From NCBI GenBank assembly GCA_945861675.1, contig CAMAVY010000002.1, positions 1 through 64,000 of the forward strand: a DNA stretch of 64,000 nt, in the 5' to 3' direction. Source of the stretch: Klebsiella pneumoniae (GTDB lineage: Bacteria; Pseudomonadota; Gammaproteobacteria; Pseudomonadales; Azotimanducaceae). Each line of letters starts with the position of its first letter. The first letter of the stretch is position 1. Positions 3,897 through 54,025 of this stretch are shown here, in pieces. Made by a program: the position numbers and the translations under genes. The notes below the pieces were generated by a model. It did not search any database, was not told the origin of the DNA, and saw only the letters and a program-made list of their open reading frames with translations.

Positions 3897-5291
3897 ATGC
3901 ATGGGGTGCTGCCGCTGGAACGACCAATGTCGCGCGCATCGGAGCAGGTGCGAATTCCGCGTGTGTTTGCCTATTGGTCGATGGCGTTGCTGTGTTGCGG
4001 TGCGGTTGTGGAAGGGCATTCGCAATTGTTGGCTTCGATTGCGGTGGTTTATCTCGTCGGTTCGCCGGCGCTCTGGCATGCCTTCGCCACACGGGCGTCG
4101 TCGGGCACCGGTGTGTGTCTTGTCGAGCGGCGGCGCGGCCGGACGGCGCCTTCACCTGACGTGGCGATGACCTGCACGGAGGCGATCATGAGCAGCGCCT
4201 TTTCGGTCTTCGCGTTACCGCTGTCGCTTGCGATCGCTGCGCTGGCAGGGCTGATTCTCGTGCGCGTTGCGACGCAAGGTCGGTCGCAAGGTGCGGCGTT
4301 TCTGCTGGCCTTGGGCGCGGGCGCATTGATTGGCGTGCTCGCCGCACGCAGCTACTCAGGCGCGGCGTGGCCTTCCGTGATGTCCGTCGGGCAGCTGGCG
4401 GCGGTGGCGTTGTGGCTGTTCATGCTTGCGCTTGCGATTGCGTGGGTCGGGAACAATACGCGGCAGGGACTGCGCGTGGCGCATGCGCGGGCCAGCGGCA
4501 TCTCCGCTGACATCGCGTGCCTGGCGCAGCGTCTAGGGCGCTACCTCCCGCCGACCGTGCGGCAAACATTGATGGACAGGGTGCTGCACGATGCGGAGGT
4601 CAGCACCGGCATGTCGGACATCGATCGTCTGCTGGACGTCTCCGCGACGCGACATGTCTCGCAGCGGCGTTGGTTGACGGTGTGTTTCTCGGACATTGTT
4701 GGCTTCACGGCAATGACGGAGCGGCTGGAACCGGAGGAAGTGTCCGTCTTGCTCGATGCCTACCAGCGCGAAGTGTCGACGGCGGTTGCAGTGCACGGTG
4801 GCACGCTGGACAAATTCCTTGGCGATGGCGCGATGGTCATCTTCGGCGACGGGGAACATTCGGATCGGCATGCAGATGCAGCCGCAGGCGTGCGCATGGC
4901 AATCGCGCTGCAGGCGGCGATGTCGGGCCTGAATGCCCGACTCTCGGCGATGGGCATTCGCGTCGGGATGCAGCTGCGAATCGGCGTCGCATCGGGCATC
5001 TGCACGGTGGGTGATTTCGGTAGCGATGATCGATTGCACTACACGGCGCTGGGTCGAGCGGTGAATCTCGCCAGCCGGCTTGAGAGTGCAGCAGGGCCGG
5101 GTGAGATTCTGCTCGCTGAGTCCGCCGCTGATCTTGTCGCGGGTGAGTTGGCTTGCGATCGCGCGGGTGAGCTGCAGGTAAAAGGAATCACCTGGCCGGT
5201 CGCCGTATACACGCCGCGCCGGCGTCGAGCTCTGGAGAGCGACTCGCCGTTCTCAGGGGATTGGCCCGCATTGGCCGTCGTGCCCCAATGA
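3897..5291 (+). CDS. membrane-anchored class III adenylate/guanylate cyclase
   Basis: Several N-terminal hydrophobic helices. C-terminal cyclase homology domain (FSDIVGFTAMTE...LDKFLGDGAMVIFG...LRIGVASGICTVGDFGS...ALGRAVNLASRLESAA). Start uncertain, alternatives at ~4165 and ~4189. Confidence 0.7.
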   Translation: MHGVLPLERPMSRASEQVRIPRVFAYWSMALLCCGAVVEGHSQLLASIAVVYLVGSPALWHAFATRASSGTGVCLVERRRGRTAPSPDVAMTCTEAIMSSAFSVFALPLSLAIAALAGLILVRVATQGRSQGAAFLLALGAGALIGVLAARSYSGAAWPSVMSVGQLAAVALWLFMLALAIAWVGNNTRQGLRVAHARASGISADIACLAQRLGRYLPPTVRQTLMDRVLHDAEVSTGMSDIDRLLDVSATRHVSQRRWLTVCFSDIVGFTAMTERLEPEEVSVLLDAYQREVSTAVAVHGGTLDKFLGDGAMVIFGDGEHSDRHADAAAGVRMAIALQAAMSGLNARLSAMGIRVGMQLRIGVASGICTVGDFGSDDRLHYTALGRAVNLASRLESAAGPGEILLAESAADLVAGELACDRAGELQVKGITWPVAVYTPRRRRALESDSPFSGDWPALAVVPQ

Positions 5292-15480: not shown

Positions 15481-17292
15481 ATGGCCGAGCCCAGTGCACA
15501 TGCGGTTCCGGCAGAGCAACTTACTGAGGCCCTGAGGGGGCGCCCACTCGACCTCACATCCACGCTCGACCTGCTGATGCACGATCGCATGATCGCGCGT
15601 GGCGAAGCCGAAACACTGTTGCTGCAGCCGCGCAGCAAGCGCCAGCTGAGCCTGCACGCGCTGGAGCTGATTGCGGAGCAGGCATTCAAAGATCTTCGTA
15701 AGCCCGAGCGGGTGCTGGATCTGGATGTGCTGACGGCCTGGTTGTCGGCCCGTTCGGGCATCCCTGTTGTGCGTATCGATCCGCTGAAGGTGAACGTCCC
15801 GCGCGTGACGCAGGTGATGTCCTACGCCTTTGCTCAGCGGCACAACCTGCTGGTGGTTGACGTGCGCGAGGACGAAGTGCTGGTGGCCACGGCGCAGCCT
15901 TTCGCGACCGAGTGGCGGGCAACGCTGGAGCAGACCGTCAAGCCGCGCCGCATCACGCTGATGGTGGCCGACCCCGCGGACATCACCCGCTATCAGCTCG
16001 AGTTCTACACAATGGCGCGCTCGGTGGCGAAGGCCATTGAAGCCGGCATCACGACCACGCGCGTATCGAACTTCGAGCAGCTGCTTGAACTCGGGCAGCT
16101 GAAATCGCCGGATGCGAACGACGCGCACATCGTCAACATCGTCGACTGGTTGCTGCAGTACGCATTTGATCAGCGCGCATCGGATATTCACATTGAGCCG
16201 CGCCGCGAGATCGGCCATGTGCGGTTCCGCATCGATGGCGTACTTCACAACGTCTATGAACTGCCGGCGCTGGTCACCGCGGCCGTGACCAGCCGGCTGA
16301 AAATTCTCGGGCGCATGGACGTTGCCGAGAAGCGTCGTCCGCAGGACGGACGCATCAAGACCAAGAGTCCGGAAGGCAACGAAGTTGAACTGCGGTTGTC
16401 GACCTTGCCCACCGCCTTCGGCGAAAAGCTGGTGATGCGGATCTTCGATCCCGATGTATTGCTGCGCAGCTTCCGCGAGCTGGGCCTGCAGGGCGAAGAC
16501 GAGACGCGCTGGCGCGGCATGATCGGCTCGCCCGACGGCATCGTGCTGGTGACCGGGCCGACCGGCTCTGGCAAGACCACCACGCTGTATTCATCGCTGA
16601 AGCAGCTGGCCACGCCGGAGGTGAACGTTTGCACGGTTGAAGACCCGATGGAGATGGTCGAGCCGTCGTTCAACCAGATGCAGGTGCAGCAGAACATCGA
16701 CCTGACGTTCGCCAACGGGTTGCGCTCCCTTCTGCGCCAGGATCCGGACATCATCATGGTCGGCGAGATTCGCGACCTGGAAACGGCGGAGATGGCGATC
16801 CAGGCGGCGCTGACCGGTCACCTGGTCATTTCCACGCTGCACACCAACGATGCCCCCAGCGCCATTACCCGGTTGTTGGAACTGGGCGTGCCGCCTTATC
16901 TGATCAAGGCAACCTTGCTTGGCGTGATGGCGCAACGACTGGTGCGCACGCTTTGCCCGTTGTGCAAGGAACAGGAGGTCCCGGACAAAGAGGCATGGGA
17001 CCTGCTCACGCGACCGTATCGCGGTAAGGCACCCGAGCACGTTTACGCACCACGCGGCTGCCTGGAGTGTCGCGATACGGGTTATCGCGGACGCATCGGC
17101 ATCTACGAGCTTGTGACCATGACCGAGGCAACGCGCGACCTGGTGACGAGCAGCGCCGACCTGGAACAGATTCGCCGCCAGGGTATGAAAGAGGGCATGC
17201 GCCCGCTGCGCGTCGCCGGCGCACAGAAAGTTGCAGCCGGCGTTACCACTATCGCCGAGGTCCTGCGCGTGGCCCCGGCATCACAGGCCTGA
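15481..17292 (+). CDS. GspE/PulE/PilB-family secretion ATPase. Orphan: no GspF/L/M partners in the window.
   Basis: GSPII_E N-terminal domain, Walker A GPTGSGKTT, Asp/His boxes, C-terminal tetracysteine (CPLC...CLEC). 603 aa. Confidence 0.8.
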   Translation: MAEPSAHAVPAEQLTEALRGRPLDLTSTLDLLMHDRMIARGEAETLLLQPRSKRQLSLHALELIAEQAFKDLRKPERVLDLDVLTAWLSARSGIPVVRIDPLKVNVPRVTQVMSYAFAQRHNLLVVDVREDEVLVATAQPFATEWRATLEQTVKPRRITLMVADPADITRYQLEFYTMARSVAKAIEAGITTTRVSNFEQLLELGQLKSPDANDAHIVNIVDWLLQYAFDQRASDIHIEPRREIGHVRFRIDGVLHNVYELPALVTAAVTSRLKILGRMDVAEKRRPQDGRIKTKSPEGNEVELRLSTLPTAFGEKLVMRIFDPDVLLRSFRELGLQGEDETRWRGMIGSPDGIVLVTGPTGSGKTTTLYSSLKQLATPEVNVCTVEDPMEMVEPSFNQMQVQQNIDLTFANGLRSLLRQDPDIIMVGEIRDLETAEMAIQAALTGHLVISTLHTNDAPSAITRLLELGVPPYLIKATLLGVMAQRLVRTLCPLCKEQEVPDKEAWDLLTRPYRGKAPEHVYAPRGCLECRDTGYRGRIGIYELVTMTEATRDLVTSSADLEQIRRQGMKEGMRPLRVAGAQKVAAGVTTIAEVLRVAPASQA

Positions 17293-39562: not shown

Positions 39563-41809
39563 TTGACGACTGAGGAACCGCGGGCTGACGGCATCGAACG
39601 TCTGCCGCTACGGCAGTACACAGAGAAGGCGTACCTGGACTACTCCATGTATGTCATCAACGATCGCGCGCTGCCACACATCAGCGATGGTCTGAAGCCG
39701 GTACAGCGTCGCATCATCTATGCGATGTCCGAGCTTGGCTTGGATGCGACGGCGAAGTACATGAAGTCGGCGCGCACCATAGGCGACGTGTTGGGCAAGT
39801 TCCACCCGCACGGCGACAGCGCCTGCTATGAAGCCATGGTGCTCATGGCCCAGCCCTTTTCGTTTCGTTATCCGCTCGTCGATGGACAGGGCAACTGGGG
39901 CGCGCCGGACGACCCGAAGTCCTTCGCGGCCATGCGTTACACCGAGGCTCGGCTGACGCGGATTGCTGACCTGCTGCTGGCTGAGCTTGGCCAGGGTACG
40001 GTCGATGAAGTGCTCAACTACGATGGCACGCAGTCTGAGCCAGCATTGTTGCCGTCGCGGCTGCCCTTTGTGTTGCTCAATGGCAGCACCGGCATTGCAG
40101 TGGGCATGGCCACCGACATCCCGCCGCATAACCTGACCGAAGTGGCGCACGCGCTGGTGCATCTGCTGGACCATCCCACCGCCAGCATCGAAGACCTGCT
40201 GCAGTTCGTGCAGGGCCCGGACTATCCGACGGATGCCCAGATCATTACCTCACGCGAGGAAATGCTGCAGATCTATCGCGAGGGGCGCGGCAGCGTTCGC
40301 GTGCGCGCCAGCTGGCATGTGGAGGACGGCGACATCGTGATCACCGCGCTGCCGCATCAGACCTCGCCGGCAAAGGTGCTCGAGCAGATTGCCGCGCAGA
40401 TGCAGGACAAGAAGCTGCCGACCGTCGTAGACCTGCGCGATGAGGGCAACCACGAGAACCCCACGCGCCTCGTTGTCGTACCGCGTTCGAGCCGTGTCGA
40501 GGCAGACCGGCTCATGAGTCATCTGTTTGCGACCACGGACTTGGAGCGCACGCACCGCGTCAACATCAACGTGCTGGGCCTCGATGGCCGGCCACAGGTG
40601 AAGAACCTGTTGACGCTGCTCGGGGAGTGGCTGGAATTCCGGCGGATCACGGTTCGCCGTCGGCTGACCTTTCGGCGCGACCGCATCAATGAACGTCTGC
40701 ATGTATTGGAAGGCCTGCTGGTGGCCTACCTCAATGTGGACGAAGTGATTCGCATCGTGCGGGAGGCGGAGAAGCCGCGCGACGCACTGATGGCGCGCTT
40801 CGCGCTGTCGGAGATTCAGGCGAACGCGATTCTCGATCTGCGCCTGCGTCAGCTTGCTCGGCTGGAAGAGATCCGCATCACGAGTGAACGCGATCAGTTG
40901 GGCGTTGAGCTTGCGGAACTCGAGCGCATTCTGTCGTCGCCCGCTCGGCTGAATCGGCTGCTGCGACAGGAGATCGAAGAAGACGCGAAAACTCACGGCG
41001 ACGCGCGTCGCTCGCTGATTGTCGGTGGGGCCACGATTGCGGCCGCGTACTCGGAAGAAGACCTGATGGGCTCAGAGCCCGTGACCGTGGTGCTGTCGCT
41101 CAAGGGCTGGGTGCGCGCCGGCAAAGGGCACGAGATCGACCCCGAAACGCTGTCGTATCGCAGCGGTGACGGTTTCATGATGGCGGCGCGGGGCAAGACG
41201 AGTCAGCTGTGTGTGTTCGTCGATTCCAGCGGGCGCAGTTACACGTTACCGCCCAACTCGCTGCCGTCGGCGCGCGGTCAGGGCGAGCCACTTACCGGGC
41301 GAGTGAACCCGCCGTCGGGCGCCGAGTTTGCCGGCGTGCTGATGGGCGAAGGCGACGAGCGGTGCGTACTGGCGTCGCGCAACGGCTATGGCTTCGTTGT
41401 GTCGTTGGCAGAACTGGTGGCCAAGAATCGCAACGGGAAAGCGGTGCTCACTGCTGACAGTTCGGGTGTGGTGCCGCCGTTTCTCGTGCGCGATCTGCAG
41501 GCAGACGAACTGGCCGTGTTTACCAGTCAAGGCCGGCTGCTGGTGTTCCCCGTGCGCGATCTGCCGGAGCTTGCGCGCGGCAAAGGCAACAAGCTGATCG
41601 GCATTCCAGCGGCGGACGTCGCGTCGCGCGCTGAGCTGCTGGTTGCCGCAATCCCCTTCGGCCGTACTGACGAGCTGGTGGTGCACGCGGGCCAGCGTTT
41701 TCTGCGTCTGAAGGGCAGTGACCTTGATGAGTACCGCGGCGAACGCGCACGTCGTGGACGCCCGCTGCCCAGGGGATTTCAACGCGTGGACAAGGTGTTG
41801 TTGCGCTGA
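39563..41809 (+). CDS. parC: DNA topoisomerase IV subunit A
   Basis: GyrA/ParC N-terminal domain with active-site region. ~750 aa, no GyrA-box-rich C-terminus. Confidence 0.9.
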
Positions 41810-41820
41810 CCGAATGCTGG

Positions 41821-43215
41821 TCAGTTGTCAGTCAGCAACCGTTCGGTCTGGCTGGTCAGAAGCGCCGCATGTGACGGCGCGAGGCCGGTGATCTGATAGT
41901 GAAATCTGCCTGCATCGTCGTTACCCGGGATCGGCGAGCGGATGGCCATCCAAAGTACGCGCTGGTTGTCGAGCAGGTCTTCGAACACGGAGCGCTCGAT
42001 CGCAAGCGTGTGATCCTTGGCCGTGGCGCTGAGCAGCAACGTTGCAGACAGCGCTTCATCGAGCTCGTCGAGCAGCTCTGATTCGCGGCTCGATGTGGTG
42101 GGCTGTGCCAGCCGTGTCAGGCCAGCACGAAGCCCAAGCGGCTTCTGCTGCTGCAGCGCTCGTGCGTCGTTCAACTGGGCGGTCAGGCGGAGCGCAAGCA
42201 GCGCAGCGCAGATGCCGCTGAACGCGTGGTCGTCGCCCTCGATGCTGTCGAGCAGCGCAAAGAGCCCCGTGCCGTGCAGGCGGTACACGCGGCCCTTGTA
42301 GAGCCCCAGCACGCGCTGCATGCGTTCAAAGCAAACCATGTAGGCCGCGTCGCGGTCTGTGGGTGCAAGGGAACCCTGATTGAACAGGTTCAACACCAGC
42401 AGGTAGGGCGGCGCGCTGTTGTCCGTTGCGCTGCTGTCCGACGCGGAAGACGGTGCCGCCGCGGGCGCAGGATCCGGGGCAAGCAGCATGGCCAGCGCCT
42501 GTACCTGTTGCAGCGCGGAAGAAGACTCAGGCAGACCTGCACTGGGCTGTGCGCTGCCTGAATTGGCCGTCGTCGGGCCGAAGCCCGTGGACTGTCGCCG
42601 CGCGGCTGCAGTCGTCAACCACGTGGCAGTTGTCAGTCGCGTGGCAGTTGTCAGTCGCGTGGCAGTTGTCAGTCGCGTGGCGATGGCCCGAAGTTCGCCG
42701 TCGAATCGGCTGCCGATACGCGCGCCCACCCATGCAGCGAGGAGCGCGCCGACCAGTGCCGCCAGCCAGACCAGGCCTCCGCCGTGCGGCGCCAACGCCT
42801 CCGGGTCGACCACTACGCGGACGTAGCCGACGCGCTGCGCCTCGAAACTGATGTCATGCGTGAACACCGTGTTTTCCTGCGCATCCTTGGTGGCTTCGAC
42901 AGGTACACGGCCGCCTGTGCTGATCAGGCGATTGTCCAGGGTGTAGATGGCCGTGTTGACGATGGCAGCGTCATCGGCGAGATGGGTGGTGATGACGTTG
43001 AGGTCTATGCGGTCGTGGGTGACCACCGGCGTTGCAGCCAGCGCGGCAAGCTGAGCTGTGATGGTGTTGCCATAGCGTGCGACGCTTGCCTGCCCGAGGC
43101 GGTGTTGCACCACGAGGCTGGCAGGTACCATGAGCGCAATTGCGATGCCTGCCGCAAGTAATCCGTGCAGCGCGCCTTGTGCGCGTAGTGACCAGTTGGA
43201 GACGCGTGCGGGCAT
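41821..43215 (-). CDS. two-TM membrane protein with Ser/Ala/Pro-rich linker and a C-terminal degenerate class III cyclase-homology domain. In-frame 18-bp repeat x4.
   Basis: TM1 residues ~15-36, TM2 ~150-172. ATRLTT x4 encoded by gtggcagttgtcagtcgc repeats at 42605-42686. C-terminus AAYMVCFERMQRVLGLYKGRVYRLHGTGLFALLD...LRAGL... matches cyclase domain topology but lacks the first metal-binding Asp. Confidence 0.55.
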   Translation of the reverse strand: MPARVSNWSLRAQGALHGLLAAGIAIALMVPASLVVQHRLGQASVARYGNTITAQLAALAATPVVTHDRIDLNVITTHLADDAAIVNTAIYTLDNRLISTGGRVPVEATKDAQENTVFTHDISFEAQRVGYVRVVVDPEALAPHGGGLVWLAALVGALLAAWVGARIGSRFDGELRAIATRLTTATRLTTATRLTTATWLTTAAARRQSTGFGPTTANSGSAQPSAGLPESSSALQQVQALAMLLAPDPAPAAAPSSASDSSATDNSAPPYLLVLNLFNQGSLAPTDRDAAYMVCFERMQRVLGLYKGRVYRLHGTGLFALLDSIEGDDHAFSGICAALLALRLTAQLNDARALQQQKPLGLRAGLTRLAQPTTSSRESELLDELDEALSATLLLSATAKDHTLAIERSVFEDLLDNQRVLWMAIRSPIPGNDDAGRFHYQITGLAPSHAALLTSQTERLLTDN

Positions 43216-43260
43216 CGAATAGAAGTTTTGTGTTTCGTCGATACTAACCGAAGGGCTTCC

Positions 43261-44589
43261 GTGGCCGGGCCGATTATTCTGCTCAAACTCAGCGGGCGTG
43301 ATCAGAGCGATGCGACCGTGGCGCTGCTGCGGCTATTGGATCAGTTCGGAGCTCGCGTTCTCGATGTTGGCCGCGCCGAAATCCACGGTGAGTCATCGCT
43401 TGGCATGCTGTTGCAGTTACCGGATACGGGTAGTGCAATGGCGTTGTCGAACGCAGCCACGACCCTGTTGGGGCGCGTAGAGAACACCAGTCTCTCGCTT
43501 TCCGAGTTAACGCCTGAGCAGTATCTCGAATGGGCCTCGGGTCAGGGGCAGCCGCGCTACATCGTGACATTGTTGGCGCGGCAGCTGTTTGCGCGGCAAC
43601 TGTTGCGGATCACGGAGGTCGTGCAGTCGCACGGCTTGGCTGTTCGACGAATCACGCGCCTCTCCGGCCGGCCCCAGCTCGATGAAGCAGCAGGCGATGC
43701 GTCCGCGAGCCATGAGCAGGCAATTGTCGAATTCGAGCTCCGTGCGCCGTCGGTCCGTGCACTCGACATGGCGGGCGCCGCTGTTGGCGCGGCGAGGGAT
43801 CAAGGCGTGGACCAGCAGGCACTTCGACGTGCGCTGCTCGATACCTTGCGTCCGCTCGACGTCGACGTTTCCGTGCAGATGGACGACGCCGATCGGCGTA
43901 ATCGCAGACTGGTGGCCTTCGATATGGATTCCACGTTGATCCAGGGCGAGGTCATCGATGAACTCGCGAGCGCCTATGGCGTTGGCGACCAGGTGGCGGG
44001 CATCACGGCAGCCGCAATGCGTGGCGAACTCGACTTCGGCGCAAGTTTTTCGCGCCGCGTGGCGCTGCTTGCGGGTGCAGATGCCAGCTTGCTGGACGGC
44101 GTCGTGCGCGCTGTACGGCTCACGGCGGGCGCCGAACGCCTCATCCGGACCTTGAAGCGGCATGGCTATCGCACCGCGATTCTGTCGGGCGGCTTCCAGC
44201 AGGTCGGCGACCGGTTGAAGCAGACGCTGGGTATTGATCACGTGTATGCCAATACGCTCGAAGTGGTCGATGGCAAGCTGACCGGTCGCGCGCTCGGCAC
44301 GGTCGTCGACGGCGCGCGCAAAGCAGCCCTGCTGCGTGAACTTGTCCAACGTGAAGGGTTGCGTATGGCGCAGGCGATCGCGGTGGGTGACGGCGCCAAC
44401 GATCTGCCGATGCTGAGCATCGCGGGGTTGGGCGTCGCTTTTCGCGCGAAGCCCATCGTGGCTGCCAGCGCCGAGCACGCCATCACGCACTTCGGGCTCG
44501 ACGCGATCCTGTATCTGATCGGCTTCTCGGAACGCGATCTGCGCGATCCGCAACTGCTGCCGGATCAGGCCTCGCTGGCGAAGTTGTAG
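43261..44589 (+). CDS. serB: phosphoserine phosphatase with N-terminal ACT-like regulatory domains
   Basis: HAD motifs (DMDSTLI ... GDGANDLPM). GTG start at 43261 or TTG at 43228. Confidence 0.85.
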   Translation: MAGPIILLKLSGRDQSDATVALLRLLDQFGARVLDVGRAEIHGESSLGMLLQLPDTGSAMALSNAATTLLGRVENTSLSLSELTPEQYLEWASGQGQPRYIVTLLARQLFARQLLRITEVVQSHGLAVRRITRLSGRPQLDEAAGDASASHEQAIVEFELRAPSVRALDMAGAAVGAARDQGVDQQALRRALLDTLRPLDVDVSVQMDDADRRNRRLVAFDMDSTLIQGEVIDELASAYGVGDQVAGITAAAMRGELDFGASFSRRVALLAGADASLLDGVVRAVRLTAGAERLIRTLKRHGYRTAILSGGFQQVGDRLKQTLGIDHVYANTLEVVDGKLTGRALGTVVDGARKAALLRELVQREGLRMAQAIAVGDGANDLPMLSIAGLGVAFRAKPIVAASAEHAITHFGLDAILYLIGFSERDLRDPQLLPDQASLAKL

Positions 44590-46754
44590 TCCATTTCCGT
44601 CGCGGGCTCCTGCAGGTACTGGCCCTGGATGTAGTTCGCGCCGCCCTGCCACAGCGCTGCCAGCAAAGCGGCGCTTTCCACCATCGGCACGATCGTCAGC
44701 TTGCCGCAGTTCTGCAGCAGGTCGATCAGCCGACCGAGATTTGCGCGCTGCTCCTGATTCGAATGCACTGACCCGATCAGCGAAGCGTCGACCTTGACGA
44801 AGTCCACGTTCAACTTGCTGATCAGGTCGCGTGGACTGTGGCCGCCGGTGAAGTGGCTGATGCCGGTGCGGCAATGCAGGTCTGTGAGCGCACGGGTGAA
44901 GTCGCCTGCCTGTGTCACGTTGTGCATGATGTCGCGCTCGCTGATCTGCAGTACCAGCGCGTCGGCGGGCAGGCGGGCCGCGCGAATCGCGACGCCCAGC
45001 CATTGCGGGAACGAAGTGTCGAACACGCTGGCACTGCTCAGGTTGACCAGCATGCGCGTGTCATTACCGTTCGCGCGGTGTGTCGACAGCAGCTTGATGG
45101 CCTGCAGGACCAGCCAACGGTCAACGCGACCACTGACAGCGCTGGGCAGGCTGCCGGGCGCCAGATCCAACCATGCCAGCGGCTCGCCGCCGGTCGGCGA
45201 GTCATCGATGCCGCGCGGGATGTACAGGAAGGCTTCGTACAACTCGTCTGCTTCGCCGTGCACGCTGATGATGGGTTGAAACATCAGTGTGAAGCTGTTG
45301 GCCTGCAGCGTTTCATCGACCAGCGCGGCCAGCTTCTGTGCGGCGCTCGGACTCAAGGGTTCGCGCGGACGCCTCGCACCTGGAGCGACAGGTGGTTCTT
45401 GAGTTGTTGATGGTGCCGCATCGGCCGCTGCTGGGAGCGCTGACTCCGGGTGTTGTGGCTTTGCGCCCACTGATGCGGAGCGATCGAGGCGCCGCAGAAG
45501 CTCGTCGACAATGCCCAGATCCGGACTGAGCTCGTCCGCCAACGGCATGACCACGGTGCGCAAGCGGACTTCAAGGGCGCCTCGGCTCTCGTCGGAACAA
45601 CGAGTGGCAATGTGGCTGGCAATATCCTCCAGTTCCAACTGTGCGTTCTCGAGTTCCAGATTCTCGAGCAGCACCAGGGTGAGATCGTCAGCGACCGCGA
45701 GTACACGGTGCGGCGCGGCAAACGCCTCGCACAGCAGCTCGGTCATTCGTCCATTGACGGTCGCGCACAATTCGAGGCCTGCCTGCCCGCGCTTTTGTGC
45801 CTGATTTACCCATTGCAGTGCTGCAATGCAGCCGAGCGTGCCGCTTGCCAGCAGGCCGGCGTGGAAGGTTTCTATGCCTTTCCTCAGACGTGCCAGCCGA
45901 TCATCGTCCTTGTTGGACGCGCCGCCGGGTGTCGAGGTGGAGGTCTGTGTATCTGCAGCATCGGCGTTCGCAATTGTTCGCACTGAAACCTGCCAGCAGG
46001 CCTCGCCCTCGTACACGGCGGGCTGCACGGACAGTTCGGCATGAAACTGCTTGCCATCAACGTGCAGACACAGGAGTTGCAGCCGTACGCGCTCCGATCC
46101 GGAGACATCGCGCAGGTAGTGCTTGAGCGGTTCCTGTGCTTCTGGTGGCACCAGGTCGAGCATGGTGGCACCGAGGAGTGCGTCCACGTCGGCGTAGCCG
46201 AACATGCTGAGATAGTTCGCGTTGGCGAACACGTGCATACCTTCCTGCACATAGGCGACGCCAACATCGGATGTTGCCAGCAGCAGCTGCAGGCGTTGGT
46301 CGATCTCGTCTACCGCAAGCTGGGCACGTGTCAATTGGATGCGATTGCGGACGTTCTCCCATTCGCGGCGGAAGACCAGCAACAGCCGCTCACGATCATC
46401 GGCGTTCATTGCGTCATGCGCGCCGTCGCGCAGCGCCTGCGTCGTTCGTGAGGCATCGCATTGTGGATCGAGCAGCAGAACCGGGAGCGCGTGGTCGAAC
46501 TCGCGCACCATCGGTACCGTGTTGGCAAGCGTGCCGAGGGCGCTATCGGCGTGCAGGATCAGCATGTCCCAGGCCTGCTTCTGCAGGGCGGAACGCAGCC
46601 CGCGTTCGTCGTCAACGAACTGCGTGCGCAACGTGAATGATGCGTTGCGCAGCGTTGCGATCAGTGCTTCAGCGGCATTTTCGTCCTGCTCCGCAACAAG
46701 CAGACGAACAGGCTGAGCGCTGTGTGAAACAGTGTGCGGACGCACGTTCGTCAC
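44565..46754 (-). CDS. fimX: FimX-like c-di-GMP signalling protein: REC - PAS - degenerate GGDEF - degenerate EAL
   Basis: Receiver domain at the N-terminus. No GG(D/E)EF motif. EAL signature replaced by ...ADELYEAF.... GTG start 2 nt after the stop of the upstream PilZ-like gene. fimX lies near parC in P. aeruginosa too. Confidence 0.65.
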   Translation of the reverse strand: MTNVRPHTVSHSAQPVRLLVAEQDENAAEALIATLRNASFTLRTQFVDDERGLRSALQKQAWDMLILHADSALGTLANTVPMVREFDHALPVLLLDPQCDASRTTQALRDGAHDAMNADDRERLLLVFRREWENVRNRIQLTRAQLAVDEIDQRLQLLLATSDVGVAYVQEGMHVFANANYLSMFGYADVDALLGATMLDLVPPEAQEPLKHYLRDVSGSERVRLQLLCLHVDGKQFHAELSVQPAVYEGEACWQVSVRTIANADAADTQTSTSTPGGASNKDDDRLARLRKGIETFHAGLLASGTLGCIAALQWVNQAQKRGQAGLELCATVNGRMTELLCEAFAAPHRVLAVADDLTLVLLENLELENAQLELEDIASHIATRCSDESRGALEVRLRTVVMPLADELSPDLGIVDELLRRLDRSASVGAKPQHPESALPAAADAAPSTTQEPPVAPGARRPREPLSPSAAQKLAALVDETLQANSFTLMFQPIISVHGEADELYEAFLYIPRGIDDSPTGGEPLAWLDLAPGSLPSAVSGRVDRWLVLQAIKLLSTHRANGNDTRMLVNLSSASVFDTSFPQWLGVAIRAARLPADALVLQISERDIMHNVTQAGDFTRALTDLHCRTGISHFTGGHSPRDLISKLNVDFVKVDASLIGSVHSNQEQRANLGRLIDLLQNCGKLTIVPMVESAALLAALWQGGANYIQGQYLQEPATEMDYNFASEA

Positions 46755-46756
46755 GT

Positions 46757-48649
46757 TCAGGATTCCGTGTCGCTGAACAACGGGTCGAAGCCGGAATTGC
46801 TTGTGCCGTAGCCTGAGCCTGCGCGCGCGCGCGCTGACGACGGATCTGCCTGTCCGGCTTCGATGTATCGGAACTCGAACTGTGCAAAGGCATCGGTCGA
46901 TGAGACCAGCTTCGACAGCACTGCTTTTGCGTCGGCGCCCGATTGGTTGATCAGCACGCGCTGACCTTCGGAAAACGAGATGCGCGGCAGCACCAGCATT
47001 GCAGCCTGTCGCAGCATGGGTATCGAGGGCAGCAGCAGGCCGCGCATGAACTGTGGCTCTTCGTTCTTGCGGTTGAGCACGCGCGCACCTACCGGTTCAG
47101 CAGCGGGTGACAGCAGCTCAAGGCCGACCATGGTGCCGGAGTCCGGCGCATGGCGAATCCAGCGGGCCACGCCCAGCGCCCAGCGCTGCCCTGCGTTCTC
47201 GCGGATTGCCAGCAACTCACCTGTTTGCAGATTCGGAGGCGCGGCATCTTTCCAGCGGATGCAATAGCCGCCCGGCGAGGTGTCGACCGTGTTGGTCTCG
47301 TAGAACGGATAGGTCGCGAGATCCAGCTCCCGTGCCGGCTCCTCTTCAACCTGCTCGTTGATGAGTTGCAGGTCGTCGAGGTCCGGGTTCTCGGGAATAC
47401 GTGCGCCGCCGCCAGAGTCGAATGCGTTGGACCAGACGTCGCCCAGGGCCGGGGTCGATCCGAAACCATTGGGACTCGCTTGAAACACGTCATTGCGGTC
47501 GGAAAAGCGATTCTTGATCAGGGGCTGGAAGACATGGGCCTTGCGTAGCAGCGACTCAAAGTCATGGCCGTCTGCCAGGTGATAGTGGGCGGCCGAAAAG
47601 CCGACGCAGACGTACAACTTGCCCGTTGACGGCAGCCGTGAGAAGGCCCGCTTCGAACGTCGGCCCCAGGCGTTGGCCGCGTGAGCCAGCAGGTCCTGCG
47701 ACAGACCGCCACCGATCTGCAGGCGATGTGCGTTCTGCTCGCCGCCAATTGCGTGTTGCTCAACCGCCGCGTCCAGCAGATTCACCAGCCGGTCGGTATT
47801 CAAGGTCTCGCACAGATCGTGGGACTCGCCGTCGTAGGCTGGACCGTACACCGGCGGGTCGTCCTTGGTCAGATCCACGACGAAACTGCCATTCACCACG
47901 CCGTTGGTCACTTCAACGTACTTCGACCAATCGGCGAGCTGGTCGAACAGACCGCTCAGCTGGCGTTGGCGCAACTTGTTCGGGCTGGCAGTCGCGAGAA
48001 GCGCGGCGCGCAGGTAGGCCTGGGCAATGGTGAACGGACCCTTGTGTTCGTCGTCGGCGTGCTCATCCAGGCGGACCGACGAAATTCCTGCGCGCTCGCT
48101 CACCATCAAAAGCTGATTCAGCTCCAGCCAGGCCTTGGGCAGCGGGTCGGTGTACAGCTGGCAGGCCCGCAGAATCGTCATTATCAGTTCGCCAAGCGTA
48201 CGAAAAATCGCGATGGGCACCAGCGAACCGACTTCACTTGGCCTGGTGCCGGGCCCGAACGGCACTTTGCTTTGGATCGCCTGCACGACCACAACCTTGT
48301 ACCCGACCGCCAGTTGGTTCTGCAGCACCTGACACTGGTTCGCATAGCGCCGCATGGTTTCGTTGACCAGCACGGGCTGGTTCAGGAACCACCGCGCCAG
48401 GCCAACACAGGTGAAATGGACCGGACCCCGGAGCGCCTCGATCATGGCGAAGCGATCCTCAAGCCCGCATTTCAGCTGGGGAATTTCGACGACGGCACGA
48501 TATAAATGCTTGGCAACCTCATCAACAGCCGCCATCGGTAGCTCGGAGAGCCACTGATCGAATGCTTCGGGCGTTTCATCGCAGAACGACAACCTTTCCA
48601 GTTGCTGTGCGGGCACGCTCAAGCGCAAGGTTGTCTTCGGTGCGGTCAT
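46757..48649 (-). CDS. 630-aa conserved protein with a C-terminal PilZ-like domain, putative c-di-GMP effector
   Basis: C-terminal DTSPGG (DxSxGG-like) followed by beta-strand pattern GELLAIRE...WALGVARWI...GTMVGLELL. N-terminal ~450 aa unassigned. Appears co-transcribed with fimX. Confidence 0.45.
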   Translation of the reverse strand: MTAPKTTLRLSVPAQQLERLSFCDETPEAFDQWLSELPMAAVDEVAKHLYRAVVEIPQLKCGLEDRFAMIEALRGPVHFTCVGLARWFLNQPVLVNETMRRYANQCQVLQNQLAVGYKVVVVQAIQSKVPFGPGTRPSEVGSLVPIAIFRTLGELIMTILRACQLYTDPLPKAWLELNQLLMVSERAGISSVRLDEHADDEHKGPFTIAQAYLRAALLATASPNKLRQRQLSGLFDQLADWSKYVEVTNGVVNGSFVVDLTKDDPPVYGPAYDGESHDLCETLNTDRLVNLLDAAVEQHAIGGEQNAHRLQIGGGLSQDLLAHAANAWGRRSKRAFSRLPSTGKLYVCVGFSAAHYHLADGHDFESLLRKAHVFQPLIKNRFSDRNDVFQASPNGFGSTPALGDVWSNAFDSGGGARIPENPDLDDLQLINEQVEEEPARELDLATYPFYETNTVDTSPGGYCIRWKDAAPPNLQTGELLAIRENAGQRWALGVARWIRHAPDSGTMVGLELLSPAAEPVGARVLNRKNEEPQFMRGLLLPSIPMLRQAAMLVLPRISFSEGQRVLINQSGADAKAVLSKLVSSTDAFAQFEFRYIEAGQADPSSARARAGSGYGTSNSGFDPLFSDTES

Positions 48650-48898
48650 GCAGCGGGTCCTGGTATGCCGGGCGTAGGTTAACTACCGACTGATGAGTAT
48701 AAGTTAGCTATTGATTGATGCAGTTGCATGACATACCTGAGCAGGGTCGACTCGGCGATCTCGAGGCCGATCAGCGTGCGGATCGACTGCTGGAGGGCGC
48801 CAGGTAAAAGGCTCAAGCTGACTATGGCGACCGGCGGGCTGCGCGACACGTACCCTGGATGGGTCACACCCGAAGTCAGCGGGTCAACCCGGCACCGA

Positions 48899-49909
48899 TC
48901 AGCCAACTACCACGGTCTTCGAAGTCGACCCCGGAATCTCCCGGACCAGCCGCGGCACCAGATATCCGGGCAGGCGCGCCCGTACTTCATTTATCAATGC
49001 GACCGCGTTGCTCCGGCAGACATCGAAGTGCGCAGCACCTGCTACCGGGTCCAGCAGATGCAGGTAGTAGGGTAGGACTGCGCTAGCGATGAGACGTTCG
49101 GAGAGCTCGACCAGTGTGTCGGCGCTGTCGTTCACGCCCTTCAGCAGCACGCTCTGATTCAGCAGAACGGCGCCACTGGTGCGGAGCCGAGTCAGCGCTG
49201 CGCCAAGCTCAGCGTCGATCTCGGCGGGGTGGTTGATGTGCAGCACGACGACGCTGCGCAGCCGCGTCCCGGTAAGGATTTCCACCAGCGCTTCGGTGAC
49301 GCGGTCGGGGATCACGACAGGCAGGCGGGTGTGAATACGGACTGTCTTCAGGTGCGGAATGTCGCCGAGACGGCTGATGAGCGTTCGAAGCGTGTTGTCC
49401 CGCAGCATCAGCGGGTCGCCGCCCGAAAGGATCACTTCATTAATGGTGGTGTCTGCGCCGAGTGCCGCCAGCACCGCGTCTGGCAGTGCCTGCGCGCCCT
49501 GGTTCTCGGTGTAGGGGAAGTGCCTGCGGAAACAGTATCTGCAGTTGACGGCGCAGGAAGTGGCGGCCATGAGCAGGGCCCTGCCTGCGTACTTCTGCAG
49601 CAGACCCGGGGCGCGCAGATAGTCCGCCTCTGTCAGCGGATCGGCGCTGAAGCCCGGCAAAGTCGCGCTTTCCTGGCGGGTGGCCAGGACCTGTAGAAGC
49701 AGCGGATCAGTTGGGTCTTGATGGCGCATACGCCGCAAAAATGGTTCGGGAACCAATGTGCCGAAGTCCCCGGCATCATCGACCTGAAGCGCAAGCGGAT
49801 GGTCGCCGAGCCCCAGCCGCTGCAGCAGTGTGCTGCTCGAACGAATTGCCTCGCGCAGTGTTCGTTGCCACGTTTCGGACTGCCTGCGGCGGGTGGCAAC
49901 GGGTATCAT
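48899..49909 (-). CDS. epmB: EF-P beta-lysylation protein, lysine 2,3-aminomutase-like radical SAM enzyme
   Basis: [11 protein letters not shown] radical-SAM cysteine motif. Divergent from efp. First ATG at 49907-49909. Confidence 0.85.
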
Positions 49910-49938
49910 TCGCGGCTTCCTTCGGGCGGTGGTTGCCA

Positions 49939-50511
49939 ATGGCTACGTATTCTACAAGTGAGTTCCGCGCCGGCATGAAGGTCATGTACGAGGGCGACCC
50001 TTGTTCGATCCTCGAAAATGAGTTCGTGAAGCCGGGCAAGGGACAAGCGTTCAATCGCGTGAAGTTCCGCAATTTGAAGAATGGCCGGGTATGGGAACGC
50101 ACCCTTAAGTCTGGCGACAGTCTGGAAGCTGCAGACGTAGTCGAGATGGAAATGGAGTTTCTGTACGCAGATGACCAGTTCTGGCATCTGATGAAAACGG
50201 ACGGCAGCTTCGAACAGCTTGCCGCACCTGAGAGCGCAATCGCCGGTGCGCGCGAATGGCTGAAGGAACAGAACAACTACACCGTCACGCTGTGGAACGA
50301 CCAGCCCATTTCGGTGTTGCCACCGAACACGATCGAGCTCGCAGTGGTGGAAACCGACCCGGGCATGCGTGGCGACACTGCAACCGGCGGGACCAAGCCT
50401 GCGAAGTTGTCATCAGGCGCGATCGTCAAAGTGCCGCTGTTCATCGAAATCGGCGACGTGTTGAAGGTCGACACCCGTCGCGGCGAATACATCAGCCGCG
50501 CCAAAGGCTGA
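49939..50511 (+). CDS. efp: elongation factor P
   Basis: [15 protein letters not shown]...[16 protein letters not shown], including the lysine-containing loop (KPGKG). Confidence 0.9.
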
Positions 50512-50531
50512 TTCACTTCGGGTTCTGAGCC

Positions 50532-51497
50532 ATGTCCGCACCGGACTGGCGACCCAGCGCAAGTCTTGGCGCGCTCCGTGCCCGGGCGGCCTTGCTTGCG
50601 TTGACGCGCACGTTCTTCGCGCAACGTGCCGTGCTTGAGGTCGAAACACCTCAGCTCGGCCATACGTCTGTGACTGAACCCGCGATCGAAAGTCTGACGG
50701 TGCCGTTCGGTCATACCATGCGTTATCTGCAGACGTCGCCCGAATACGCGATGAAGCGTCTGCTGGCCGCCGGCAGCGGTGACATTTATCAGGTGGCACG
50801 GGTGTTTCGTGCGGGTGAGGCGGGTCGCCGCCACAGTCCTGAGTTCACGTTGCTCGAGTGGTACCGCTGCGGATTCGACCTCGCTGCGCTCATCGATGAA
50901 ACGCTTGAATACATCTGTCATGCGCTGGGGCGTACGCCCGCCGTGCAGGTGTTCCGATATCACGATCTCCTGCGTGCGCGGATCGGCATCGACTTCGTCG
51001 CGAATACGGATGCTGAGTTGCGTGTTGCGTTGGCCAGGACGTTGGCGGGAACCCCCCCTGCGGCCCTGCTGCAGTTTGATCGCGCAGCCCTGCTGGACCT
51101 TGCGTATGACACTGCGTTGCGGCAGCTGAATGAAGGCATGCTCGTAGTGCGCGACTTTCCGCCAGCAGCGGCGGCGCTGGCGCGGTTGGCGGAAGACGCT
51201 GACGGCCGCGTTGTGGCGCAACGCTTCGAAGTGATTGTCGATGGGCTTGAGGTCGCCAACGGCTATTACGAATTGACGGACGCGGCCGAGCAGGCGAATC
51301 GATTTGCCGCCGACAATGCGCGTCGACTCGCGGCTGGACAGCCACAAATTGCGCCGGATGCGTTGCTGCTCGCAGCGTTGGCTGCGGGTTTGCCGGATTG
51401 CGCGGGTGTTGCCGTGGGCCTCGACCGTCTGCTGATGCTTAAGCTCGGTGCCGGGCACATCGCGGAAGTGCTGAGCTTCGACAGCGCGCGTGCGTGA
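50532..51497 (+). CDS. epmA: EF-P-lysine lysyltransferase (truncated LysRS paralog)
   Basis: Class II aaRS catalytic-core motifs without an anticodon-binding domain. Directly downstream of efp. Confidence 0.8.
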   Translation: MSAPDWRPSASLGALRARAALLALTRTFFAQRAVLEVETPQLGHTSVTEPAIESLTVPFGHTMRYLQTSPEYAMKRLLAAGSGDIYQVARVFRAGEAGRRHSPEFTLLEWYRCGFDLAALIDETLEYICHALGRTPAVQVFRYHDLLRARIGIDFVANTDAELRVALARTLAGTPPAALLQFDRAALLDLAYDTALRQLNEGMLVVRDFPPAAAALARLAEDADGRVVAQRFEVIVDGLEVANGYYELTDAAEQANRFAADNARRLAAGQPQIAPDALLLAALAAGLPDCAGVAVGLDRLLMLKLGAGHIAEVLSFDSARA

Positions 51498-51597: not shown

Positions 51598-52437
51598 TCA
51601 GGCCGACCGCCGCAGGAGTGGCTGACCCATCTGCAGCGGCTGGCCGGTCGCCACGCCCTCAGCAAGTGTGTACTGCCCCTGCGGCAGACAAAGCACCACG
51701 GTCGAGCCCAGTTGGAAATGGCCAAGCTCGGCACCGCGTTGGAATGGAATGGGTGCCCGTGACGCAGACCACGATGGCCGCGGACCGTCGTGCCATACGG
51801 CACGGATGCCGGCAACGATCAACGCGCCCACCATCACAAGTGCCAGCGGACCGAAGGCCGTCTGCAGCTCGCACACCAGCCGCTCGTTACGTGCGAACAA
51901 TCCAGGCACGCCTGCTTCGGTGCGTGGATTCACAGAGAACAGTTCACCAGGCACGTAGCGCGCCGCTGTCAGCGTGCACGCTTCTGGCGTGTGCACACGG
52001 TGATAGTCCCGCGGCGCCAGATAGATGGTGACGAAGTAGCCGCCGGCGAACTCGCGTGCGTAGTCAGCATTTGCCAGCAGTGTGGCCGCCGAGTAGCGAT
52101 GTCCCTTTGCCTGTACCAGCGCGCCTGCTTCCAGTTTGCCGTGTTGTCCCAGCCGGCCGTCCGACGGACTGACGATCACATCTGGCGCAGCGGCCACCGT
52201 TCGAGCACCGGGCCGGAGGGCGCGAGTAAAGAAGTCATTGAAACTTGTGTAGTCCGACAGCGCGACGCGGTCTGCCTCCAGCATGTTCACGCCATAGGCT
52301 TTCGCGAACGCATCGATGGCATAGCGTGCAAACGGTGCCAGCACGCCGCTGTGGGTTGAGCACTCGGCGGCCATGCCAACAAGGCGCGACAACCCGTGCT
52401 TGGGCAACACATGCTGCAGAACAATGAAGGGGTCCAT
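51598..52437 (-). CDS. psd: phosphatidylserine decarboxylase proenzyme
   Basis: LGST self-cleavage motif (FQLGSTVV). Length ~280 aa. Confidence 0.85.
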   Translation of the reverse strand: MDPFIVLQHVLPKHGLSRLVGMAAECSTHSGVLAPFARYAIDAFAKAYGVNMLEADRVALSDYTSFNDFFTRALRPGARTVAAAPDVIVSPSDGRLGQHGKLEAGALVQAKGHRYSAATLLANADYAREFAGGYFVTIYLAPRDYHRVHTPEACTLTAARYVPGELFSVNPRTEAGVPGLFARNERLVCELQTAFGPLALVMVGALIVAGIRAVWHDGPRPSWSASRAPIPFQRGAELGHFQLGSTVVLCLPQGQYTLAEGVATGQPLQMGQPLLRRSA

Positions 52438-52438
52438 G

Positions 52439-53269
52439 CTACGGGCCGCTCTGCACGGGCGTGTCGGGGCGGTTACCCCACTCAGACCATGAGCCGTCGT
52501 AGGCGCGGATATTCATGTCGAGCAGGCGACCGACCAGATACGTCAGGCCGGACCGATGATGCGTCTGACAATGCGTAATGATTTCGCTGTCGCGGCGCAG
52601 GCCACGTGCGTTGAGCAGCTCGCGCAGATCGGTGCGCAGGCGCAGCGCGCGATCGGCATCCATCAGCTCCAGCCAATCCAGGTTGATTGCGCCGGGAATT
52701 CGCCCGGCCCGCGCAGAGCCGCTGCGCTCGCCGCGGTGCTCCGGCGCAGATCGCGCGTCCCAGATCTGCACATCAGCGTCGCTGTGTCGTTGCAGCAGCT
52801 CGTCGATCAACACGCGTGGCCCTGGCTGCGCGTTCAGCGCGACCTGTGTTGGGGACCGCTGCGGCACCTGGGTGCTGAGCGGTGCGCCGACGTCGAGCCA
52901 CGCGTGCAGGCCGCCGTTCAGATAGCTCCAACGCGTATGACCGATGACTTCAAGCGTCCAGATCAGCCGGCCAGCCCAGCCGCCGCCTTCATCGTCGTAG
53001 GCAATGACCCAGGTTTCGGGAGTAAGGCCCAGCTGGCCGAACAACGCAGCAAGCCGATCAGACGCGGGCAGCATGCCGACGGCTGGCCGGGTTCCGGCTA
53101 CGAGCTGCATCGGTTCTACGTGCAGCGCGCCTTCAATGTGCCCGTTGGCGTAGGTCTGCCCCTGGCAAAGGTCAAGAATGAGCACGTCGCCCCAGCCGCC
53201 CTGTGGGCGATTCGCCATCCGGGCGCGCAGATCTTCAGGTTCGAGCAGACGCGGGAATTCGATAGGCAT
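52439..53269 (-). CDS. tandem-rhodanese sulfurtransferase
   Basis: Two rhodanese domains. Catalytic Cys loop CQTHHRSG in the second. Stop 1 nt before the psd start (operon). Confidence 0.7.
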
Positions 53270-53416
53270 CCGGTTATTCGTCGGTCAGCGGGAGGCGGCG
53301 GATTCTGGCAGGCGACGGGTTGTAATGGCACCAGGACGGAAGGCGGGCTGCGATGCGATGGCGTTCGCTATGCTGTTCGGGTCCACCTCCGCAACTTGAG
53401 CAGTGCCTCCTCGATC

Positions 53417-54025
53417 ATGGCTTCCGACGCTTCTGCCTCCAACGTGTCCGCCGCCGGTCCGCCAGCAGGTCTCCCTGTGGGTGGGCCTTCGGGCGCCAAT
53501 CTGGTCTGGATCGATCTGGAGATGACCGGGCTGGACCCGGAGCAGAACGTGATCATTGAGATTGCCAGCATCGTGACCGACGGTGAGTTGAACGTGCTGG
53601 CCGAGGGCCCGGTGTTTGCGATCGCGCAGCCCGAGTCCGCGCTGGCTCTGATGGACGACTGGAACACCAGGCATCACAACGCATCGGGGCTGGTTGCGCG
53701 TGTACGGGCGAGTACCGTAGACACGGCCGCGGCCGAGCAGCAGACCTTGGCGTTTCTTCAACTGCATTGCCTGCCCGGTAGTTCGCCGCTGTGTGGCAAC
53801 AGCATTGGTCAGGACCGCCGCTTCCTGTTTCGCTACATGCCGCTGCTGGAGCAGTTTTTCCACTACCGGAGCATTGATGTCAGCACCGTGAAGGAACTGG
53901 CGCGGCGATGGCGGCCCGATGTGCTCGCTGGTGTGCGTAAGCAGGCCAAGCACCTGGCGCTGGACGACATCCGCGAGTCGATCGCCGAATTGCAGCATTA
54001 CCGGCAGACGTTCTTTCGCGGCTAA
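53417..54025 (+). CDS. orn: oligoribonuclease
   Basis: DEDDh exonuclease motifs ([11 protein letters not shown] ... H). ~200 aa. The track ORF 52556-54025 is a long upstream-open frame; ATG chosen at 53417. Confidence 0.85.

Follow-up and report, generated by a model that had tools for sequence, protein, structure and literature searches.

The window analysed here, a stretch of DNA of 64 kb, carries a two-gene locus, from an uncultured Pseudomonadales-type gammaproteobacterium, that we identify, with a probability of about 87%, as orthologous to the fimW–fimX pair of Pseudomonas aeruginosa (PA4958–PA4959). The original prediction had described a FimX-like gene located immediately downstream of a gene for a 630-aa PilZ-like protein, and implied that the latter was new. 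Both ORFs are present as described, and the downstream one encodes a full-length FimX orthologue. The implied novelty has to be withdrawn: the upstream protein is already known as FimW (PA4958), and the Pfam families FimW_N and FimW_C cover it. The features of the locus, all of them on the minus strand, are the following.

46757..48649, minus strand: fimW orthologue, 630 aa, ATG start, putative c-di-GMP receptor of the FimW family (ORF, Pfam, BLASTP)
47660..48649, minus strand: N-terminal all-helical domain of FimW, about residues 1–330 (Pfam FimW_N)
46850..47650, minus strand: C-terminal split PilZ-type beta domain of FimW, residues 334–600
47636..47650, minus strand: RxxxR motif (R334-A-F-S-R338), first half of the predicted PilZ c-di-GMP site (translation RAFSR)
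47336..47539, minus strand: predicted disordered core, residues 371–438, of the insertion that splits PilZ strand 1 from strand 2 (pLDDT below 50)
47267..47284, minus strand: D/NxSxxG motif (DTSPGG, residues 456–461), second half of the predicted PilZ c-di-GMP site (translation)
46775..46789, minus strand: C-terminal FDPLF peptide of FimW (translation)
46752..46759, minus strand: fimW stop codon (TGA), 2 nt, and GTG start of fimX (sequence; equal spacing in the relative L076)
44565..46754, minus strand: fimX orthologue, 729 aa, GTG start, degenerate REC-PAS-GGDEF-EAL protein (BLAST-type identity, PDB 3hv8, AF2, Foldseek)
46395..46709, minus strand: pseudo-receiver (REC), residues 16–120 (alternating strands and helices in the AF2 model)
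45975..46262, minus strand: PAS domain, residues 165–260 (Pfam PAS, E = 5e-7; also PAS_9 and PAS_4)
45471..45899, minus strand: degenerate GGDEF-like domain, residues 286–428, with ADDLT as signature (alignment to protein P0069)
44604..45350, minus strand: degenerate EAL domain, residues 469–717 (Pfam EAL, E = 8e-37)

Orthology and gene neighbourhood

When compared by BLASTP, the 630-aa protein and P. aeruginosa FimW share 34% identity, residues 3–597 of the former aligning with residues 5–576 of the latter (E = 4e-113). As a reference we used the FimW sequence of a contig whose FimX EAL domain is 100% identical to PDB 3HV8. Precomputed Pfam matches (E ≤ 1e-5) assign FimW_N (PF27104) and FimW_C (PF27125) to an identical 630-aa protein encoded on contig L074, and both families are present in 58 of 58 close homologues, one of which is labelled "Cyclic-di-GMP receptor FimW" by its source. 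The local copies of Pfam and NCBIfam gave no match for the 630-aa protein or for its halves, even at E ≤ 10; in the case of Pfam, this is because the newer FimW_N and FimW_C models are missing from the copy. Sequence searches of the PDB, performed with the 630-aa protein and with a profile of the spliced domain described below, returned only chance-level matches to unrelated proteins. FimW is a very large family, as an exhaustive profile search retrieved 5387 cluster representatives that are related to the 630-aa protein (E ≤ 1e-3). A profile search starting from an alignment gave 59 proteins, a set identical to that of the single-sequence search. The cluster names of ten family representatives, which come from Hahella and Thalassolituus and in no case from Pseudomonas, read only "hypothetical" or "GTPase". 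With respect to the downstream gene, the 729-aa protein aligns with P. aeruginosa FimX over 728 columns at 32% identity (E = 9e-102). Taking into account the size of the family to which the 630-aa protein belongs, and that each of the two ORFs has full-length homologues, we consider both to be genuine genes, as opposed to ORFs that arise by chance.

The gene order psd–(epmB)–fimW–fimX–serB–parC is conserved across the Pseudomonadales, and the position of the 630-aa protein between psd and fimX/serB agrees with its membership in the FimW family. Nearness to parC, as in P. aeruginosa, had been predicted and was confirmed. The locus has in common with that of P. aeruginosa the presence of both proteins at full length, their order and strand, psd upstream, a convergent serB downstream and parC a few kb beyond. 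The split PilZ motifs of FimW are also shared, as is the loss, in FimX, of the DDFG aspartates and of the REC phospho-acceptor. Unlike in P. aeruginosa, epmA-efp-epmB are located between psd and fimW. Elsewhere in the 64-kb window, at 15481..17292, lies a gene for a type IV pilus assembly ATPase of the TfpB type; beyond it, no core pilus gene was seen in the window, pilB itself included.

The split PilZ module of FimW

FimW of P. aeruginosa has been described as a c-di-GMP receptor, and as "encoded with" FimX (PMC11656802, PMC10335732). The presence of a PilZ-type c-di-GMP module in its orthologue in the window, as originally proposed, is borne out by conserved motifs and by the PilZ matches of spliced sequences; the limits of the module had to be redrawn. 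The PilZ part was thought to begin at about residue 470, leaving the N-terminal 450 aa without assignment. It begins at an invariant RxxxR motif (residues 334–338), and the PilZ-free part comprises about 330 aa and corresponds to Pfam FimW_N. Among 34 homologues, both arginines of RxxxR are invariant, as are S458 and G461 of the DTSPGG sequence, which had been noticed previously and is found at 47267..47284; position 456 is either D or N. P. aeruginosa FimW has R-T-F-Q-R and NHSPGG at the equivalent places. FimW consists of a helical N-terminal domain and a split PilZ domain, in which the RxxxR and D/NxSxxG motifs would bind c-di-GMP.

The two motifs are 117 residues apart in this protein and about 100–125 in the family, whereas their spacing is about 20–30 in canonical PilZ receptors (YcgR, MotI/DgrA, PA0012 and the PilZ domain of Alg44; PF07238). 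FimW also differs from these receptors in the disordered insertion that follows strand 1, variable in length and sequence among homologues, in its fusion to a 330-aa helical domain and in its sub-threshold PF07238 score. As the disordered insertion splits the PilZ domain, generic PilZ models miss FimW. An HMM search with PF07238, suggested at the outset as a check, left the intact 630-aa protein and its halves unmatched at E ≤ 10. Upon removal of residues 357–446, the spliced FimW of the window matched Pfam PilZ with 14 bits and an E value of 0.068 (gathering cut-off, 22.5), and 13 out of 20 family members spliced in this way gave a match (E ≤ 1), the best one with an E value of 8e-5. Structure prediction yields a PilZ-type beta-barrel; Foldseek matches of this model, which is predicted and not solved, to PilZ structures are weak (all E ≥ 0.03).

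The failure of the PilZ HMM to recognise the intact protein, together with a distance of about 117 aa between motifs that are canonically separated by 20–30, would also fit a c-di-GMP-blind adaptor, that is, a PilZ fold devoid of nucleotide binding such as those of the small PilZ proteins of Pseudomonas and Xanthomonas. We regard this explanation as very unlikely. Unlike in non-binding PilZ proteins, the two binding motifs hardly vary, if at all, throughout a family of very large size. P. aeruginosa FimW, which is equally split, has been reported to bind c-di-GMP, to localise to the cell poles in a c-di-GMP-dependent manner and to promote pilus assembly (PMC11656802, PMC10212136). In the predicted model, moreover, the insertion forms a disordered loop, and RxxxR directly adjoins strand 1 in the sequence, as in canonical PilZ domains. 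Hence a c-di-GMP receptor is still the reading that we prefer for the 630-aa protein, with a probable pilus function. Regarding the piliation phenotype of fimW mutants, recent direct-labelling data conflict with earlier reports (bioRxiv 10.64898/2026.09.03.749161). At its C-terminus the protein carries FDPLF, the local form of a conserved FDSLW-like tail of the family (P. aeruginosa FimW ends in ...FDSLWKSL), and this peptide could serve as a docking motif.

The degenerate domains of FimX

The EAL domain of the 729-aa protein matches that of P. aeruginosa FimX (PDB 3HV8) with an E value of 2e-59 and that of Xanthomonas FimX with one of about 1e-24; its predicted model superimposes on the P. 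aeruginosa FimX structure 4ag0 with a TM score of 0.91 and 43% identity. The four-domain architecture is based on a collinear alignment (30% identity) to protein P0069, which itself contains all four Pfam domains and whose region 272–418, collinear with the GGDEF-like part of FimX, matches Pfam GGDEF with an E value of 4e-24. It is consistent with a Foldseek match of the predicted model to the PAS-GGDEF-EAL structure of RbdA (5xgb) over 611 columns (E = 9e-29).

Each of the signalling domains examined for its signature residues departs from the consensus. In the pseudo-receiver, the phospho-acceptor Asp is replaced by His ("ILH" versus "ILD" of DrrD), this position being Ala in P. aeruginosa FimX. 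The predicted absence of a GGDEF motif was confirmed, Pfam finding only PAS and EAL; the domain, with ADDLT in place of the motif, is too diverged for Pfam, unlike that of P. aeruginosa FimX. The replacement of EAL by DELYEAF likewise stands, as LYEAFLY is encoded at 45222..45242. According to the residue table and the translations, the EAL motif reads EAF, the Arg that follows it is Tyr, and DDFG is SHFT. This region is EAF-L-Y here versus EVL-L-R in P. aeruginosa FimX, and the loop behind it is about 6 aa longer. Both DDFG aspartates are absent in this FimX and in all 44 of the 44 fimW-linked FimX homologues. FimX is most probably an enzymatically dead REC-PAS-GGDEF-EAL protein.

It could be argued that the 729-aa protein works as a c-di-GMP phosphodiesterase and not as a receptor, since it keeps the EAL-motif Glu as well as the Asn, Glu, Lys and Gln that are conserved in EAL domains, and purified P. 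aeruginosa FimX has weak phosphodiesterase activity (PMC5595344). Such an activity is extremely improbable when both DDFG aspartates are replaced, a loss shared by all the fimW-linked FimX proteins examined, when the EAL motif is no longer followed by Arg, and when the nearest solved relative is the EAL domain of the FimX receptor.

[quoted passage not shown] LapD-type receptors have in common with the FimX of the window a GGDEF-EAL tandem that is inactive, and whose EAL domain senses c-di-GMP in LapD and may do so in FimX (Foldseek E value of about 4e-18). Unlike LapD, the window FimX has no HAMP or periplasmic module, has another output and is devoid of the central binding-site Arg.

Three features of the protein would fit a FimX that does not sense c-di-GMP, a reading that we regard as unlikely, namely Tyr in place of the central EAL Arg, Thr at the Gly position of DDFG and a GGDEF domain unrecognised by Pfam.

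The fimW–fimX junction and the relation between the two receptors

The GTG start of fimX is located 2 nt past the fimW stop, as predicted (...TCC TGA ac GTG ACG AAC GTG...). If the first REC strand is to be retained, the one possible alternative start is the second GTG, located 11 nt past the stop. We found the 2-nt junction in this lineage only, the second case being one close relative (L076). In other relatives, P. aeruginosa included, the gap ranges from about 18 to 110 nt and is usually of about 60 nt followed by an ATG start; in P. aeruginosa it is of 64 nt, also with ATG. Of the translational coupling originally proposed, what stands is the 2-nt gap here and in L076, which makes coupling of fimX translation to fimW termination plausible for this lineage; the gaps of the other relatives do not extend it to the family. 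A scan for promoters and terminators gave 0 promoter-like and 4 terminator-like sites, a chance level, none of them at the fimW–fimX junction, and both genes are most likely co-transcribed. An Rfam search of 44300..49200 matched no family, c-di-GMP riboswitches included.

An arrangement of this kind may suggest that FimW and FimX are partners, physically or functionally, and relay a c-di-GMP signal, with a stoichiometry fixed through translational coupling. Adjacency on the same strand is indeed widely conserved: of 68 genome loci that were informative, 46 have fimX directly after fimW, and in all 66 Pseudomonas-like metagenome loci fimX is preceded by fimW. The intergenic gaps are short, and the two P. 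aeruginosa proteins are both polar regulators of pili (PMC6581867). Nevertheless, 22 of the 68 related genome loci, mainly from Halieaceae, have fimW and no fimX before serB, and a gap that usually measures about 60 nt and is followed by ATG speaks against obligatory coupling. In addition, a review published in 2024 states that no functional interaction of FimW with FimX or with PilB is known (PMC11656802). We therefore consider such a relay unlikely. Even less likely is an arrangement in which the FimX of this clade is c-di-GMP-blind and acts as an obligate partner of FimW, at a stoichiometry fixed via the 2-nt junction, FimW being the sole sensor.

The locus had also been set apart from the complex of FimX, a small PilZ protein and PilB in Xanthomonas, and this distinction was upheld, the partner being FimW. 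Xanthomonas FimX is likewise a degenerate REC-PAS-GGDEF-EAL receptor with a homologous EAL domain, and regulates the extension ATPase of type IV pili. It is paired with a small type II PilZ protein that does not bind the nucleotide, whereas here the partner is a protein of the 600-aa class; no small type II PilZ protein is encoded adjacent to the locus in the window. In P. aeruginosa, binding of PilZ to FimX could not be demonstrated (PMC5595344). A pairing of the Xanthomonas Filp/PXO_02715 type, which we considered as a candidate, was dropped because the partner is FimW and because P. aeruginosa FimX has by far the more similar EAL domain.

Conservation of the fimW–fimX pair and of its surroundings extends well beyond the genus Pseudomonas, a result whose importance outside annotation is small. 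The genomes that have fimW without an adjacent fimX are a natural set bearing on the independent action of the two receptors. The Arg-to-Tyr change in the FimX of this clade bears as well on whether FimW and FimX act independently; a c-di-GMP-blind FimX, if true, would represent a lineage-specific rewiring of a known two-receptor system.

Gene pair and neighbourhood in the window

The two tandem minus-strand ORFs lie exactly where the original prediction had placed them, as do the DTSPGG and EAF-type EAL motifs, which were located by translation. The features of the region are as follows.

39563..41809, + strand: parC
41821..43215, − strand: 464-aa protein, between parC and serB
43228..44589, + strand: serB, whose 3′ end shares a 25-nt overlap with the fimX 3′ end
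44565..46754, − strand: fimX, 729 aa, GTG start
44847..44858, − strand: SHFT (FimX), from the translation
45222..45242, − strand: LYEAFLY (FimX), from the translation
46757..48649, − strand: fimW, 630 aa, ATG start
47267..47284, − strand: DTSPGG (FimW), from the translation
47636..47650, − strand: RAFSR (FimW), from the translation
48899..49939, − strand: epmB
within 48899..51497: efp and epmA, with epmB
51598..52437, − strand: psd
52439..53269, − strand: rhodanese gene

The junction reads TCC TGA ac GTG ACG AAC GTG; hence the gap is 2 nt, and the GTG start proposed directly past the upstream stop is present. The sole alternative fimX start preserving the first receiver-domain strand lies 11 nt past the fimW stop.

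The 464-aa protein next to parC has no significant family match in Pfam or NCBIfam, and carries a perfect 18-bp tandem repeat (3.3 copies, 42622..42681) encoding TRLTTA repeats. P. aeruginosa also has a gene at the matching position (8251..9852 on contig L078), a counterpart by position. A 489-aa ORF (52556..54025, + strand) has an RNase_T (orn-like) domain; Orn is the pGpG-degrading enzyme of P. aeruginosa. Its start is probably over-extended, because the domain is confined to residues 317–478, the ORF overlaps the rhodanese gene, and the public gene call on L074 (the contig encoding an identical 630-aa protein) retains the ORF and drops the rhodanese. In a further 464-aa protein (3897..5291, + strand), Pfam identifies a class III adenylate/guanylate cyclase domain at E 6e-22; NCBIfam gives the protein no name. 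The genes for EF-P and its lysylation enzymes (epmB, efp, epmA) sit between psd and fimW; epmB is common there in related loci and absent there in P. aeruginosa. EF-P of Acinetobacter has been noted as a c-di-GMP binder (PMC11880434), and its proximity to c-di-GMP receptor genes is probably a coincidence.

Identity of the two proteins

The 729-aa protein is FimX, as its predicted likeness had suggested. The complete P. aeruginosa locus was taken from metagenome contigs in which the FimX EAL domain and the 3HV8 sequence are 100% identical; this FimX (691 aa) aligns with the 729-aa protein end to end (32% identity, E 9e-102). Among solved structures, the FimX EAL domains of P. aeruginosa match best (3hv8, E 2e-59), far ahead of Xanthomonas FimX (about 1e-24) and of active phosphodiesterases. 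Pfam matched PAS and EAL (E 8e-37), and neither REC nor GGDEF; the protein is collinear with the homologue P0069, in which Pfam finds REC, PAS, GGDEF and EAL. The AF2 model shows REC (residues 16–120), a long helix (121–161), PAS (165–260), a GGDEF-like alpha/beta domain (286–428) and EAL (469–712). With Foldseek, it matches the RbdA PAS-GGDEF-EAL structure over 611 columns (E 9e-29) and the P. aeruginosa FimX EAL structure with a TM of 0.91 and 43% identity.

The 630-aa protein is FimW. A 607-aa protein is encoded directly upstream of fimX in the P. aeruginosa contigs and aligns with it over residues 3–597 (34% identity, E 4e-113); PA4958 is FimW and PA4959 FimX (PMC10335732). Two precomputed Pfam families are assigned to homologues of the 630-aa protein; on L074 they bear the names FimW_N and FimW_C. 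One homologue is labelled 'Cyclic-di-GMP receptor FimW' at source. By exhaustive profile search the family is large: 5387 representatives score E ≤ 1e-3, of which 2362 reach E ≤ 1e-30. Across the family, a disordered tail is followed by a conserved acidic/aromatic C-terminal peptide; many members, P. aeruginosa among them, have FDSLW(K/x)SL, and the window FimW has FDPLF (46775..46789, − strand). The peptide could be a docking motif.

A PilZ-type C-terminus had been predicted for this protein, and it is a PilZ domain, although split. Intact, the protein matched nothing in local Pfam and NCBIfam libraries even at E ≤ 10, PilZ included. R334 and R338 (RxxxR) and S458 and G461 (D/NxSxxG) are invariant in a 34-sequence alignment, the two motifs being about 117 residues apart versus the canonical 20–30. 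In the AF2 model (mean pLDDT 80, pTM 0.77), a helical N-domain extends to about residue 330; RxxxR is directly followed by a strand (339–349), a stretch is disordered (371–438), and the first hairpin of a beta domain (450–595) bears DTSPGG. When residues 357–446 were cut out of 20 family members, 13 matched Pfam PilZ (best E 8e-5) and every other Pfam family was matched at most once; window FimW itself reached E 0.068 at best. Because the cut was chosen to suit PilZ spacing, this is supporting evidence only. Since the split PilZ is supported by profile and seen in the model, and P. aeruginosa FimW has the same layout, the view that the protein lacks a PilZ fold can be set aside.

Conservation and possible coupling of fimW and fimX

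Loci were scanned in one genome per species (73 loci, 68 informative). All 73 come from lineages of Pseudomonadales type, among them Halieaceae, Cellvibrionaceae, Moraxellaceae, Marinobacter and Oleiphilaceae. They share the gene order psd–(epmB)–fimW–fimX–serB–parC as a conserved arrangement, which agrees with the proximity to parC proposed by analogy with P. aeruginosa. In 46 of the 68 informative loci, fimX comes after fimW with both genes on one strand; in Pseudomonas-like metagenome loci that extend far enough upstream, fimW precedes fimX in 66/66. The median gap in this second set is about 62 nt, and P. aeruginosa has 64 nt; in the close relatives of the window the gap is 2 nt (L076), 18 nt (L077) and 56 nt (L075). 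In L076 (1462..3375), the closest relative sharing the 2-nt junction, the gene call upstream of fimX covers just an 89-aa FimW_C fragment, preceded by about 1.9 kb without a called gene; a frameshift, a pseudogene or a gap in the assembly may account for this.

Co-transcription is well supported by conservation, if not demonstrated, and translational coupling of fimX to fimW is a reasonable inference for the window lineage alone. A scan of the junction returned no promoter-like or terminator-like site, performing at chance level and being uninformative in this GC-rich DNA. Rfam found no family in the locus, c-di-GMP riboswitches included.

A relay of c-di-GMP signals between FimW and FimX was also suggested. 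This less likely reading has the adjacency of the genes as its sole support, and two points speak against it: in 22/68 loci, mainly from Halieaceae and relatives, convergent serB directly follows fimW with no fimX between (L015, L016, L018–L020, L023, L024, L026–L029, L034, L035, L041, L042, L051, L052, L058, L060, L062, L068, L073), and no FimW–FimX interaction is known, as stated in PMC11656802.

Putative c-di-GMP binding and type IV pili

The degeneracy of the 729-aa protein matches that of FimX and agrees with published descriptions (PMC8389850, PMC5595344). The REC phospho-acceptor Asp is His (Ala in P. aeruginosa), the GGDEF signature position reads ADDLT, and the EAL motif reads EAF. 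DDFG is SHFT, both Asp being gone, a loss found in 44/44 fimW-linked FimX homologues examined. A peculiarity of the window FimX clade concerns the Arg that directly follows EAL, which is replaced by Tyr or shifted three residues; the loop behind it is longer and modelled at low confidence. In LapD the corresponding Arg occupies the middle of the c-di-GMP site (PMC3032553); c-di-GMP binding by window FimX is therefore putative.

A 603-aa protein (15481..17292, + strand) scores 946 bits (cut-off 850) against NCBIfam 'type IV pilus assembly ATPase TfpB', so that some part of a pilus system, at the least, is present in the organism. It carries Pfam MshEN and T2SSE. MshEN is a c-di-GMP-binding N-domain, and the ATPase is a possible second c-di-GMP input to pili in the window.

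The observation is real and its original reading careful; as to novelty, the locus is already known, a rediscovery of the P. aeruginosa fimW–fimX pair. According to PMC10212136, which cites Laventie et al. (2019), FimW that has bound c-di-GMP takes up a polar position and promotes pilus assembly. By analogy with P. aeruginosa, the favoured reading is that both receptors act on the type IV pilus machinery.
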